64,000 bases of DNA from Candidatus Egaibacter danicus (GTDB lineage: Bacteria > Pseudomonadota > Gammaproteobacteria > Burkholderiales > Burkholderiaceae_C): the NCBI GenBank assembly GCA_016707075.1, contig JADJII010000002.1:261082-325081 (forward strand). The letters are read 5' to 3'. A program made the translations under genes and the position numbers. The stretch's first letter is position 1, and each line of letters opens with the position of its first letter. Shown here piece by piece: positions 56,048 to 63,980 of the stretch. The notes beneath the pieces are model-generated. The model searched no databases. It worked only from the letters and a program-made list of their open reading frames with translations, and was not told the DNA's origin.

Positions 56048-56393
56048 GTGAAGCCCGCCAGACTGCCGCTGGTGCAATCCTGGAAACAGGGCACTGGAGG
56101 AACGTCCGGACTGCATAGGGCAGCGTAGCAGCTAACGGCTGTCCACTGAAAGCCTTTCGTGAAAGCGATGGGTATAAGGTGAGGATCAGAGCAACAGAGA
56201 CGAGCCGCTTGAGTGCGGGTGAAACGGGCAATCTCTACGCGCAGCAATACCAAGTAGGCACACGTTGACGGGGCCCCCGGAGTGTGCGGGTAGGTAGCAC
56301 CGAGCCACTGAGCGATCAGTGGCCCAGATTAATGGCAGTCACGTTGGAGGCAACTTCAACGCACAGAATCCGGCTTATCGGTGGGCTTCACAC
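56048..56393 (+). ncRNA. rnpB: RNase P RNA, bacterial type A
   Basis: P1 pairing GUGAAGCCCGCC / GGUGGGCUUCAC. Universal blocks GGAGGAACGUCCGGAC, CAUAGGGCAG, GCAACAGAGA, GGGUGAAACGG, ACAGAAUCCGGCUUAUCGG, colinear with E. coli M1 RNA. Followed by a T6 tract. Confidence 0.9.
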
Positions 56394-56426
56394 TTTTTTG
56401 TCTCCGGGCCGCGCTGGAGAAAACGC

Positions 56427-56504
56427 GGCAAGGCACACCCGCACGCCGGAGCCTCATACGCTTCGCTTTTTGAAATCGGCTCCAGCATGCGGGTGTGCCT
56501 TGCC
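56427..56504 (-). repeat. Long hairpin element, copy 1 (27-bp stem, 24-nt conserved loop; orientation defined by the loop sequence)
   Basis: ggcaaggcacacccgcacgccggagcc / tcatacgcttcgctttttgaaatc / ggctccagcatgcgggtgtgccttgcc: 25 Watson-Crick pairs plus two positions that are G-T only on the minus strand. Confidence 0.8.
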
Positions 56505-56611
56505 ACTTGCCTCTTCAGTGTCAAGCTATAGTGCGGGCAACGAAACTTGAGGCAATTGATCCAGCAGCCGGGTTGACTTCAAAACCTGCATGCTGCTTTT
56601 CCGGGGTTGTT

Positions 56612-56740
56612 ATGACTGTTCATTTGTCCGGCATGGCGACTGAAAGCCTTGTTATAAGCGGGTTTGCGCTGATATCGGTTGCCTGTGTCAGGGCGATAGT
56701 GGCGATGTTGCGGACACAGAAAGCTGTGTCTCTATATTGA
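56612..56740 (+). CDS. Hypothetical 42-aa single-pass membrane peptide
   Basis: MTVHLSGMATESLVISGFALISVACVRAIVAMLRTQKAVSLY. It ends 13 nt before the HEPN-like ORF. There is no strong ribosome-binding site, so coding status is unproven. Confidence 0.3.
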   Translation: MTVHLSGMATESLVISGFALISVACVRAIVAMLRTQKAVSLY

Positions 56741-56752
56741 GTTGGGCTTCTC

Positions 56753-57424
56753 GTGAGCGCGCGCGTTGACCATGAAGACCTTGCCGTTGGTGCGTGCTAC
56801 GCGATGGCGCACGCTGTCAACGTTCTCGAGGATGCCGCGATCCTGTACTCACAGAAGCGCGCCTCAAGCAGCTTCCACCTTGCTGTCATGGCTCGCGAGG
56901 AACTTGGACGCTTCAATCTTCTCGCGGAGCTGCATTACGGATTGCCCGCCAACGAGTGCGTTGACGCCACCGAGCTCGCGCGACACTTGGAACCTCACAA
57001 GATTAAGCTTCTGGCAGGCCAATCGGTTGTGCCCGTGCCTATGACGCCCGAGCAACTAAAGGCGTGGCAAGCCGCCATCGAGCGAAATGATGAAACGGCG
57101 AGTTCAGCCATCTCACAACAGATTCGCACGAGCGCCGCAAAGCTGAAGCCTCACCAAGCGGCGGCGTTGCACCAACGTCGACTCAAGGCTCAATATGTTG
57201 ACCTTGACCCACAAACGGGTCAATGGTCCCGCCCCTCCGAAGTGTCGATGGCTGACGCGTCCACGCTCATCCGCATCGTCATGGCTGAGATTGCAAATGC
57301 ACTTATTGCCGCTCAGGGTGCTGCGTGGCTTCACGCCGCATTCGCTAGCATCGGAGAACGCAGAACTGAAATGGGCCCGTTCATGCATCGCATCTTTGCG
57401 CGTCTGGGCGAAGGCGATGCCTAA
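56753..57424 (+). CDS. HEPN-domain protein resembling the AbiV abortive-infection family
   Basis: 223 aa, helical-looking. ..AVNVLEDAAILYSQ..FHLAVMAREELGRFNLL.. is followed by ARHLEPHKIKL (an R-x4-H motif). GTG start. The call rests on remembered family features only. Confidence 0.45.
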   Translation: MSARVDHEDLAVGACYAMAHAVNVLEDAAILYSQKRASSSFHLAVMAREELGRFNLLAELHYGLPANECVDATELARHLEPHKIKLLAGQSVVPVPMTPEQLKAWQAAIERNDETASSAISQQIRTSAAKLKPHQAAALHQRRLKAQYVDLDPQTGQWSRPSEVSMADASTLIRIVMAEIANALIAAQGAAWLHAAFASIGERRTEMGPFMHRIFARLGEGDA

Positions 57425-57474
57425 ACGTTCTTTCTGAATGTCCCTTTAAGGCCCCTCAAACCTCAACCACTGCA

Positions 57475-57560
57475 GTGCGGCGAGTCAGGCGCGAATGTTG
57501 GGGGCGATTTCAAAAAGCGAAGCGTATGAGCCCCCGGCATTCGCGGCTGACTCGCCGCAC
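57475..57560 (+). repeat. Long hairpin element, copy 2 (31-bp stem, identical 24-nt loop)
   Basis: gtgcggcgagtcaggcgcgaatgttgggggc / gatttcaaaaagcgaagcgtatga / gcccccggcattcgcggctgactcgccgcac: 28 Watson-Crick pairs, 2 G-T, 1 mismatch. The loop is the exact reverse complement of the copy 1 loop. Confidence 0.8.
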
Positions 57561-57595
57561 GGGTACGGGTTACCCGAGACCGTGCAATGTATAGG

Positions 57596-58126
57596 TCAAC
57601 TTTTGGCCAGCAGCGACTGGCCAAACGCGAACACGGAATTGGGCGCCGTGGTCCGCACCGGCTCCAGCCGGGGTTTCTTGAACACGCCCCGCTTGGCCGG
57701 CTGCTTTTCCTCGGCCTTGAAGCCCTTGGCAAGTTGCTGTAATACCAGGCTTCGCAAGGTGATGGATTGCATGTACTCCTCTACCTTCGAGTTCAACGCG
57801 TCCCACAGGGCCTGGGTCATATCTTGCGCAGAGTCATGCGTTGCCATGGATGCCGTCTCACTGGGCGCTTCGCCCTCGACGGCGCCAATGATGTCTGCCA
57901 CCGTGATGCTGTCCGCACGATGCCCCAGTGCGTATCCGCCACCAGGTCCGCGTGTGCTCTCCACCAGGCCGTGCTGGCGCAGCTTGCTGAACATCTGCTC
58001 CAGGTACGACAGCGAAATCTGGTGACGCACCGCAATTTCAGACAGCGGTACAGGACCGGATTTCTCGCGCAGCGCGACGTCGATCATCGCGGTAACGGCA
58101 AATCGACCTTTGGTACTTAAACGCAT
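57596..58126 (-). CDS. Rrf2-family regulator, IscR-like but lacking all cluster-ligand residues
   Basis: MRLSTKGRFAVTAMIDVALREKSGPVPLSEIAVRHQISLSYLEQMFSKLRQHGLVESTRGPGGGYALG is near-colinear with E. coli IscR. The Cys92/98/104-His107 region reads EGEAPSETASMATHDSAQDMTQALW. AGGAG ribosome-binding site before ATG 58126. Confidence 0.85.
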   Translation of the reverse strand: MRLSTKGRFAVTAMIDVALREKSGPVPLSEIAVRHQISLSYLEQMFSKLRQHGLVESTRGPGGGYALGHRADSITVADIIGAVEGEAPSETASMATHDSAQDMTQALWDALNSKVEEYMQSITLRSLVLQQLAKGFKAEEKQPAKRGVFKKPRLEPVRTTAPNSVFAFGQSLLAKS

Positions 58127-63626: not shown

Positions 63627-63980
63627 CCCCACTCACTCCCCCAGCTCCTCTCCCGCCCCGCCGGGCGGAAGAGGGGAGCCTTATTTGGTTGTTGGTGTCT
63701 TGTTACGGAAATATTGGGGAAGATCCCCACTGTTTTTTTGAGTGGCAAGGCTTCAGGTGTTGAGTTCCGAGCGCCGGAGGCGCAACGGTTTGCGGCTGTT
63801 TCAACTCCCCTTCAACCCGGGCCGCCTCCGGCGCTCGGAACTAGTACCCGGAAACCTCAACACACCAAGAGCAGTGGTGACCTCTCCCGATATTTCCCCA
63901 TCCGGCGCGCAGAAGCAAAATCAAAGGCTCCCTCTTCCGCCCGGCGGGGCGGGAGAGGGCGGGGGGAGTGAGTGGGGGCT
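63627..63980. repeat. Composite palindrome of about 350 bp (possible MITE-like or structured element)
   Basis: Outer arms ccccactcactccccc..ctctcccgccccgccgggcggaagagg..gagcc (63627-63680) match their reverse complement at 63925-63980. The middle block ggaaatat.ggg..cc.cactg is mirrored. The inner perfect 19-bp stem is 63764-63782 / 63823-63841, around a 40-nt loop. Confidence 0.8.

Follow-up and report, generated by a model that had tools for sequence, protein, structure and literature searches.

Two long hairpins in opposite orientation bracket a gene for an AbiV-family HEPN protein in a 64,000-nt stretch of the Candidatus Egaibacter danicus genome (contig JADJII010000002.1, positions 261,082 to 325,081; the whole of this stretch is called the window below, and positions are counted from its first letter). 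The locus raises the question of whether such hairpins are transcript ends, stray repeats, or the ends of something that was inserted. An initial annotation, made from the letters alone, had proposed a structure selected at the level of RNA or of single-stranded DNA. We find that the hairpins are members of a real, conserved and strand-specific structured family, and that an inserted accessory block has them as its two ends here. At several loci unrelated to one another, modules that are accessory or variable lie between inverted pairs of this family, and single copies come and go. As to how the hairpins act, we tentatively favour a role as mobile or recombinogenic module ends.

A family of strand-specific hairpins

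The two hairpins lie at the following positions, their parts being those given by a repeat finder.

56427..56504, minus strand: hairpin 1, a 'type c' family member with a 27-bp stem (29-30 bp including flanking pairs)
56427-56453 and 56478-56504, minus strand: arms of hairpin 1, with its loop at 56454-56477
57475..57560, plus strand: hairpin 2, a 'type d' family member with a 31-bp stem
57475-57505 and 57530-57560, plus strand: arms of hairpin 2, with its loop at 57506-57529

Both hairpins were recovered where they had initially been placed, in opposite orientation. The arms of hairpin 1 are 27 nt long and 93% complementary, those of hairpin 2 are 31 nt long and 90% complementary, in each case with 24 nt between them, and the two hairpins are inverted copies of one another over 80 nt (78% complementary). 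Their loops are indeed exact reverse complements: the 24-mer GATTTCAAAAAGCGAAGCGTATGA occurs twice in the 64-kb window, once per strand, at 56454-56477 (minus) and 57506-57529 (plus), and it matched in none of 100 shuffled windows even with three mismatches tolerated. Next to the loop the stems read GGGGGC/GCCCCC and GGAGCC/GGCTCC in the two copies, a compensatory change as first described. The wobbles do have T in the 5' arm and G in the 3' arm. Hairpin 2 combines two T-G wobbles with a G-G mismatch at the 17th pair counted from the loop, which the initial annotation had missed; its description was otherwise accurate. One stem is flanked by CACTGCA and GGGTACG, the other by AAACGC and ACTTGCC.

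The strand asymmetry noted at the outset was borne out by RNA and DNA folds alike, both being better on the strand defined by the loop. With RNA parameters, the hairpins fold at -67.1 and -69.1 kcal/mol on this strand against -55.2 and -58.8 on the complement (z-scores of -8 to -10.6); with DNA parameters, the values are -37.8 and -42.7 against -31.5 and -35.7. A covariance model of the family scored hairpin 1 at 98.1 bits on the minus strand versus 35 bits on the plus strand, and hairpin 2 at 98.9 bits on the plus strand versus 38 bits on the minus strand, and within the window it detected no copies beyond these two. Another long interrupted palindrome of the window, at 63745-63859 (GAGTTCCGAGCGCCGGAGGCG ... 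CGCCTCCGGCGCTCGGAACT, with a loop of ~70 nt), is unrelated in sequence to the family and scored 24 bits.

A genome scan with the 18-nt core of the loop matched at least 119 stretches. Among the matches listed, more than 80 carry the full hairpin, nearly all of them in Rhodoferax, Polaromonas and other Comamonadaceae, including the isolates R. antarcticus and R. ferrireducens; about 30 of those listed are chance matches in unrelated phyla that have no stem. The presence of just two copies in the window would fit a recent local duplication-inversion, or a chance pair of palindromes, with the motif found nowhere else. The chance of this explanation is negligible and we regard it as refuted: the genome search advised by the initial annotation shows that the motif recurs widely, in more than 100 copies from many species and with independent compensatory changes, and the two window copies belong to different subtypes (c and d), each with closer relatives elsewhere.

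The family element is a palindrome of 85-100 nt, in which a nearly invariant 24-nt loop is carried by a stem of 25-32 bp. The 106 copies used for alignment align without any gap, and 93.1% of the cells in this alignment are paired, compared with 72.8% after shuffling and ~44% when the partners are slid. The covariation score is 0.58, against 0.21 and ~0.10-0.13 for the same two controls; double-sided changes occur at 28 of the 29 stem pairs (516 cells), and none of 500 shuffles reached any of these measures. On the loop-defined strand there are 395 G.T or T.G cells against 21 A.C or C.A cells, so that selection acts on one defined strand. Conservation extends to certain wobbles, as at the 8th pair counted from the loop, which is T-G in 70 of the 106 copies. 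In sets of copies at orthologous sites the loop is 97-100% identical and the arms 71-85%, with pairing kept at 93-97%, and the outer stem is the most variable part of the element. The family-wide covariation and the 395:21 ratio thus support the proposed selection at the RNA or single-stranded-DNA level.

The loop has a structure of its own. It comprises a helix of 3 bp, in which TCA pairs with TGA, an A-T pair and a GCGAAGC mini-hairpin. In three copies the A-T pair is replaced by G-C through a double change (G48 occurs only with C58, 3/3, and never with T58), and a C44T change gives a T.G pair. The mini-hairpin varies mainly at the N of its GNA triloop, the middle base of GAA. The fold with DNA parameters predicts exactly these loop pairs, and GCGNAGC is known as a very stable DNA mini-hairpin (PMC13037366). 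We could not find this family described. No Rfam family was matched, apart from weak chance hits to microRNA precursors at 24 bits versus a threshold of 72; collections of plasmids, phages and viruses held no copy of the hairpin; and the loop sequence was not found in the literature searched.

An inserted block between rnpB and iscR

The features of the block and of its chromosomal flanks are listed here; a slash within a core site marks the junction, and L-numbers (L001, L002 and so on) are labels of the fetched relative loci or contigs, ~8 kb each.

56050..56393, plus strand: rnpB, RNase P RNA class A, left chromosomal flank (Rfam RF00010, 206 bits)
56394..57595, no strand: inserted block, from the rnpB 3' end to the iscR stop codon (comparison with L138 and L142)
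56505..56740, plus strand: non-coding leader, 236 bp (~94% identity between AbiV and MNT variants)
56711..56738, plus strand: promoter-like site CGGACA-16-TATATT, just 5' of the cassette junction (consensus match only)
56741..56747, plus strand: GTTGGGC, integron-type R' core (G/TTRRRY), left cassette junction (variant comparison)
56753..57424, plus strand: AbiV-family HEPN gene, 223 aa, the cargo (Pfam PF18728, E = 3.7e-16)
57419..57430, plus strand: GCCTAAAC-G/TTC, R''-like core over the AbiV stop codon, joined to AACG/TT (comparison with L002, L132 and L134)
57431..57474, plus strand: right spacer, from the cassette junction to hairpin 2, conserved in both cargo variants (variant comparison)
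57596..58126, minus strand: iscR-like Rrf2 regulator gene, right chromosomal flank (Pfam PF02082, E = 1.7e-33)

The block sits between the convergent housekeeping genes rnpB and iscR. In two sister lineages, L138 and L142, the gene order is that of the window (cysK-rnpB-iscR-lysR, with IscR 83% and 79% identical), rnpB follows the iscR stop codon at a distance of 5 nt and 3 nt, respectively, and the covariance model found no hairpin at this junction. It follows that all of 56394-57595, with both hairpins, was inserted in the lineage of the window. Its 1.2 kb consist, in order, of a 33-nt flank, hairpin 1, the leader, the cassette, the spacer, hairpin 2 and a 35-nt flank, and its G+C content (51-58%) is slightly lower than that of the surroundings (60-63%). 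In R. ferrireducens an unrelated peptidase M14 gene (L143:4048-4926) occupies the same junction, where no hairpins were found; the convergent rnpB-iscR junction is thus a recurrent insertion point.

The exact IscR protein of the window is present on 23 contigs, and the slot beside it does not always hold the same gene. Among contigs with 100% identical IscR it holds AbiV in L005, L006 and L010, as in the window, and an NTP_transf_2/Polbeta (MNT-type) nucleotidyltransferase in L004, L007, L008, L009 and L011. Both hairpins, with exact loops, occur in the AbiV and MNT variants alike wherever the contig extends that far, and the variants are 94% identical across hairpin 1 and the 236-bp leader. 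Homology between them stops exactly at G/TT(G or A)GGC, the MNT variants having GTTAGGC at this left junction, and restarts on the right at AACGTTCTTTCTGAA (AACG/TTCTTTCTGAA). The ends of the swap are thus located 236 bp inside hairpin 1, at G/TTRRRY, and ~47 nt before hairpin 2, at AACG/TT. With its junctions at GTT cores inside the block, the swap follows integron logic and not the hairpins. To judge from these junctions, exchange of the cargo would need only integron-type recombination at the GTT cores, by an integrase that is probably encoded elsewhere. The early suggestion that the hairpins are cassette boundaries therefore stands for the block as a whole, which two sister lineages lack, but not for the exchange of its cargo.

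The cargo itself is an integron-type cassette that keeps its left junction. Homologues of the AbiV protein number 52, mostly of 223 aa. Those at 74-87% identity are classic cassettes, with GTTAGGC-atctc-ATG before the gene and an attC (GCCTAAC...GTTAGGC) after it, and the GTTGGGC-ttctc-GTG of the window corresponds to the GTTAGGC-atctc-ATG of L002, L132 and L134. Unlike these cassettes, that of the window has no complete 3' attC of its own: GCCTAA runs directly into ACG/TTC, so that the ~60-nt attC interior of the homologues is missing and only GCCTAAAC-G/TT is left. An integrase was not found in the 64-kb window either, where tblastn with an IntI1 query gave a best E of 0.36 and no integron platform was recognised, and no intI was called in the 8.5-kb loci L004 and L005. 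The metagenomic contig L002 (L002:1-8672) is a long integron cassette array with acetyltransferases, DinB_2, many small open reading frames (ORFs) and an AbiV cassette, in which small same-strand ORFs alternate with very uniform attC sites of the form GCCTAAC...GTTAGGC (GCCTAACCCGTCGCTCAAC...GGTTAGCTTGTTTCGTTAGGC). In L004 (4700-4780) the final ~22 nt of an AbiV gene (CTGGGCGAAGGCGATGCC-GAACG) come after the MNT cassette, and by its sequence we take this locus to be the remnant of a two-cassette array, with a deletion starting at the attC-like GGGGT of the MNT cassette. In L137 (1895-4579) an AbiV homologue without an attC after it adjoins an IS91-family Y2 transposase and a tyrosine integrase, a neighbourhood which implies that AbiV genes move in several kinds of mobile context.

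The hairpins do not travel with the AbiV gene, as homologues at 66-87% identity (L001-L003, L132-L137) lack them. Among the functions first considered, that of an antitoxin or processing RNA is unlikely to be tied to the HEPN gene: the same hairpins flank unrelated cargo, and other members lie antisense inside MmeI-type genes (below). The leader was also considered as the gene of a small protein and this was rejected, as its small ORF is not conserved: the ATG is changed to ATC in the MNT variants, which also carry 1-nt indels. No homologue of the leader was found in the other fetched loci or in plasmids, and neither leader nor spacer showed homology to the twin hairpins at other loci. A 17-nt direct repeat (88% identical) links the leader (TGGCGACTGAAAGCCTT, 56634-56650) with rnpB (TGTCCACTGAAAGCCTT, 56140-56156), probably by chance. 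Further cargo variants were sought by a metagenome scan with the right-spacer pattern and by an exact look-up of the CysK protein, both without result.

Pairs and single copies at other loci

Other members of the family occupy both intergenic and coding DNA. Inside long ORFs we found 41 of 81 copies, all with the reading frame kept open, and 34 of 39 such ORFs encode MmeI-type single-chain restriction-modification enzymes. Most intragenic copies are antisense to the gene. Antisense copies always translate as ...HTLRFLKS... (27 in the ORF set, plus one in the non-MmeI ORF L015) and sense copies always as ...ISKSEAYE... (12 in these genes, plus one in the non-MmeI ORF L039). One of the MmeI-type ORFs, L088, matches the crystallised MmeI (5HR4) with 1162 bits and has, between MmeI residues 528 and 531, an insert of ~80 aa made up of the hairpin and a second, unrelated palindrome. 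This second in-frame palindrome of MmeI-type genes (GGGGTCRG...CTGACCCC, read ...GSDP.F..NSGSDP...) lies at L088:4040-4135 on the minus strand and occurs in L080 near the methyltransferase motif.

The arrangement of copies within MmeI-type genes is regular. Copies towards the N terminus are antisense, and the one towards the C terminus, which stands ~150 codons ahead of the stop, is sense, so that a minus-strand copy is followed by a plus-strand copy, here written (-,+) as for the window pair. The (-,+) pair encloses the C-terminal half of the methyltransferase domain together with the target-recognition domain. The enclosed segment is 63-73% identical between species, and the parts on its two sides are 72-86% and 70-82% identical. 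Single copies differ between close relatives: L080 has an extra copy that is absent from L052, and presence/absence polymorphism, as looked for in a miniature inverted-repeat transposable element (MITE), was likewise seen between L053 and L079, between L088 and MmeI 5HR4, and between the window and L138/L142.

Pairs also occur outside these genes. At the unrelated ppnP locus a c/d twin of the same subtypes as in the window, with loops 106-194 bp apart, is present in ~10 species. Between dppC and dppD a (-,+) pair encloses an inserted CcdB-like toxin-antitoxin pair, of which the orthologous locus in L079 has the toxin-antitoxin pair and the right hairpin only; in L065 the left hairpin is followed by different sequence. 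Overall, 18 of the 23 neighbouring pairs within 3 kb are (-,+). Intergenic copies show no orientation preference, with ~15 of 37 standing after a co-oriented gene.

Two loci show altered pairs. At the ppnP locus of L027 (3815-3900, compared with L025:3975-4270) one hybrid hairpin replaces the c/d twin; it consists of the type d outer arm, the loop and the type c outer arm, and the outer flanks of both twin copies are kept, which suggests that the twins fused, or underwent a deletion, through the loop rather than an inversion. In L100 (3900-4400) a (-,+) pair 376 bp apart is accompanied by short flanking matches to an MmeI-type protein, and the locus appears to be the remains of an MmeI-type gene, reduced by decay to little beyond the two hairpins. 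The window hairpins and leader were considered as a similar relic and rejected, as nothing in the window matches an MmeI-type gene past the hairpin-encoded peptide.

Possible roles of the hairpins

Compared with known elements, the family behaves like a small palindromic repeat of the kind to which repetitive extragenic palindromes (REPs), MITEs and Rickettsia palindromic elements (RPEs) belong, and in the window it resembles a MITE-flanked cassette. REPs, including their BIME and REPIN forms, are likewise short chromosomal palindromes that often occur as inverted pairs, can flank a gene and are thought to act single-stranded. REPs, however, are the opposite of the present family in that here the loop is invariant and the stem variable (arms are 71-85% identical even at orthologous sites), and stems measure 25-32 bp versus ~10-15 bp. 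The family also has no general GTAG head, an apparently low copy number, and in-frame copies inside genes, and no RAYT gene was identified in the 64-kb window or the ~8-kb loci. GTAG precedes the stem in some type d copies only (L025, L031, L032, L087, L093, L127); in the window there is GCAG at hairpin 2 and neither at hairpin 1.

RPEs are likewise palindromes of ~100 nt that lie in frame in protein genes, where they are translated as extra surface peptides. They are unrelated in sequence and host clade, and the present family differs from them in the concentration of its in-frame copies in MmeI-type genes (34 of 39 ORFs) and in forming oriented pairs around accessory modules. MITE-flanked integrons, or integron mobilisation units, are composite MITE structures, and they share with the window two inverted, small, non-autonomous repeats around a cassette region without transposition genes of its own. 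Unlike them, the block shows no intI, no recognisable signature of terminal inverted repeats and target-site duplications and no cognate insertion sequence, and its ends are 80-nt hairpins with a conserved loop, not MITEs of 250-440 bp. BRE, the beta-proteobacterial repeat element (Hot et al. 2011, PMC3110155), is ~90 bp long and occurs in Bordetella, Polaromonas, Rhodoferax and related genera. It is similar in that it is mostly intergenic with some copies wholly within coding sequence (PMC3110155), but it forms tandem arrays, and its published copies read ...GCCCCCTCGGGGGGCAGCAAGCGCGC...GCAGCGTGCGGGG without the 24-nt loop, with a single incidental GCGAAGCG among them. What sets the family apart is thus an unusual combination of an invariant structured loop, a stem of free sequence, selection on one strand, in-frame copies within a single family of restriction genes, and oriented pairs that flank defence modules.

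Our preferred reading, to which we assign a probability of about 0.4, is that the hairpins are mobile or recombinogenic module-end elements which act as single-stranded DNA and whose loop is read by a putative protein. According to this reading, the type c copy on the minus strand at the left and the type d copy on the plus strand at the right would be the inverted ends of the 1.2-kb insertion. Single copies would insert alone, also in frame in MmeI-type restriction genes, and (-,+) pairs would enclose an accessory module and be inherited, moved or refilled together with it. In such a pair each strand bears its well-folding hairpin 3' of the module, which may be a suitable spot for a protective or priming structure on a single-stranded copy, and the invariant loop would be recognised by a putative loop-binding enzyme. 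The module of the window would consist of the promoter-bearing leader, ending in a GTT core, followed by the integron-derived AbiV cassette or, in other strains, the MNT-type cassette. We consider DNA a more likely acting form than RNA because intragenic copies are mostly antisense, intergenic copies have no orientation preference and the loop holds a mini-hairpin of DNA type; we further infer that pairs are mobile as a unit and that a loop-binding enzyme exists. One may go further and speculate, although we think this doubtful, that the hairpins are the ends of a single-stranded-DNA module-exchange system. An enzyme would then read the loop on its free-sequence stem, and (-,+) pairs would insert, carry or replace small defence modules (integron-derived cassettes, toxin-antitoxin pairs and the methyltransferase/target-recognition segments of MmeI-type genes), the ends being tolerated as in-frame linkers.

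Several observations weigh against mobile module ends. Neither the block nor the 64-kb window yielded a transposase or recombinase, as tested by tblastn for IntI only, and none recurs beside family members in the fetched loci. Conservation of the element is lowest at its outer ends, unlike in classical transposons; no target-site duplication was recognisable at the junctions compared, where the flanks are 15-20% diverged; and no near-identical copies were seen at different sites of one genome. Copies stand at orthologous positions across many species, so that movement must be rare at best, and many of the 18 (-,+) pairs are orthologous, which leaves ~4 independent contexts against one (+,-). 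A junction expected from loop-to-loop inversion was not found in metagenomes, in a search that required an exact match and in consensus assemblies, which hide minority forms. The cargo swap in the window would be explained by the integron-type cores without any role for the hairpins, and G-U pairs would yield the same strand asymmetry, which keeps an RNA form in play.

If the hairpins act at the RNA level, they would be REP-like 3' structures serving as an exonuclease barrier, terminator or insulator on the loop-defined strand, and transcripts leaving the module either way would stop there and not continue as antisense RNA of rnpB or iscR. Such a role agrees with the wobble asymmetry, which G-U pairs would explain, with the high stability of the RNA folds, with the strong hairpin that always stands at the module exit on each strand of (-,+) pairs, with the position of the block between convergent genes, and with the short U-run that often comes after a type c copy (GCGUUUUCUCC here, GCGUUUUUGCC at the ppnP locus). 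Neither hairpin is nevertheless an ordinary intrinsic terminator, a fit judged poor from the start: in place of a short stem and a loop of 3-8 nt, the stems are 27 and 31 bp long with a conserved 24-nt loop, the terminator scan returned small sub-hairpins only, and hairpin 1 is followed on its own (minus) strand by the partial U-run of GCGTTTTCTCC, in which only GUUUUCUCC is U-tract-like. Hairpin 2, followed by GGGTACGGG, and most other members have no U-tract. Moreover, an invariant and internally structured loop is needless for blocking an exonuclease, GCGNAGC is a DNA-specific stability motif, intergenic copies do not prefer the 3' side of a co-oriented gene, and the MmeI-type copies are mostly antisense, with the sense copy ~150 codons before the stop. 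We therefore hold an RNA-level function to be unlikely, and judge no more favourably the view that these are selfish or neutral palindromes of MITE, REP or RPE kind, inserted singly into dispensable DNA and standing at the block ends incidentally, without a role for the cargo. Such palindromes would account for the presence/absence polymorphisms of single copies, for in-frame residence in large dispensable MmeI-type genes (as with RPEs), where a second, unrelated palindrome also resides, and for a swap at GTT cores and not at hairpins. They would not account for the absence of both hairpins together with the cargo at empty sites, the recurrence of the c/d twin at another locus, the dominance of (-,+) pairs, or the upkeep of loop and pairing at orthologous sites while the flanking coding DNA falls to 63-86% identity, which points to continuing constraint and not to decay.

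Two further explanations are much less probable, the second marginally the weaker. Single-strand initiation (ssi) signals that recruit a primase or primosome share with the family the strand-specific DNA fold, the GNA-type mini-hairpin and the inverted placement on opposite strands: mini-hairpins occur in G4-type origins and ssiA (PMC13037366), and ssiA and ssiB of RSF1010 form a pair of 40-nt inverted repeats (PMC8567376). The strong hairpin 3' of the module on each strand would then let either strand of the module, once single-stranded, be made duplex from its 3' side. The hairpins, however, lie on chromosomes, away from origins and from any gene for a primase, Rep or relaxase, are not found in the plasmid, phage and viral collections, have much longer stems and show no sequence similarity to known ssi sites. 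The hairpins could instead be recombination sites of a known hairpin-recognising enzyme, either long attC-like sites of an integron integrase or sites of HUH Y1 enzymes (RAYT, or TnpA of IS200/IS605). The AbiV cargo is an integron-type cassette with a G/TTRRRY left junction, attC is also a strand-specific folded DNA of conserved structure and variable sequence, RAYT genes are flanked by inverted REPs, and some type d copies start with GTAG as REPs do. Against an attC, the 106-copy alignment shows no conserved RYYYAAC/GTTRRRY cores at the stem base, where flanks differ by subtype; the stems align ungapped and have no extrahelical bases; the copies are inverted and not direct repeats; between the hairpins and the junctions of the cassette there are 236 nt and ~47 nt; and no intI was found in the window. 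The HUH/RAYT link that had been put forward was not borne out, as the two end hairpins fold well on opposite strands, unlike in IS200/IS605, the module holds AbiV or MNT instead of TnpA/TnpB, stem sequence is not conserved as it is in REPs, GTAG is found in some copies only and is replaced by GCAG or absent in the window, and no transposase recurs beside members.

If it is true that the pairs delimit exchangeable modules, they would represent a compact means of diversifying defence functions without a neighbouring recombinase, and would link integron cassettes, toxin-antitoxin insertions and the swapping of specificity in single-chain restriction enzymes, which are usually studied apart. Read conservatively, the family offers a clear natural example of a loop of invariant sequence carried by a long stem that covaries freely, selected on one strand and imposing a nucleotide-level constraint within protein-coding sequence. 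It makes testable a cellular role of the GCGNAGC mini-hairpin beyond phage and plasmid origins, and it is of practical use for marking accessory insertions in genomes of the Rhodoferax type.

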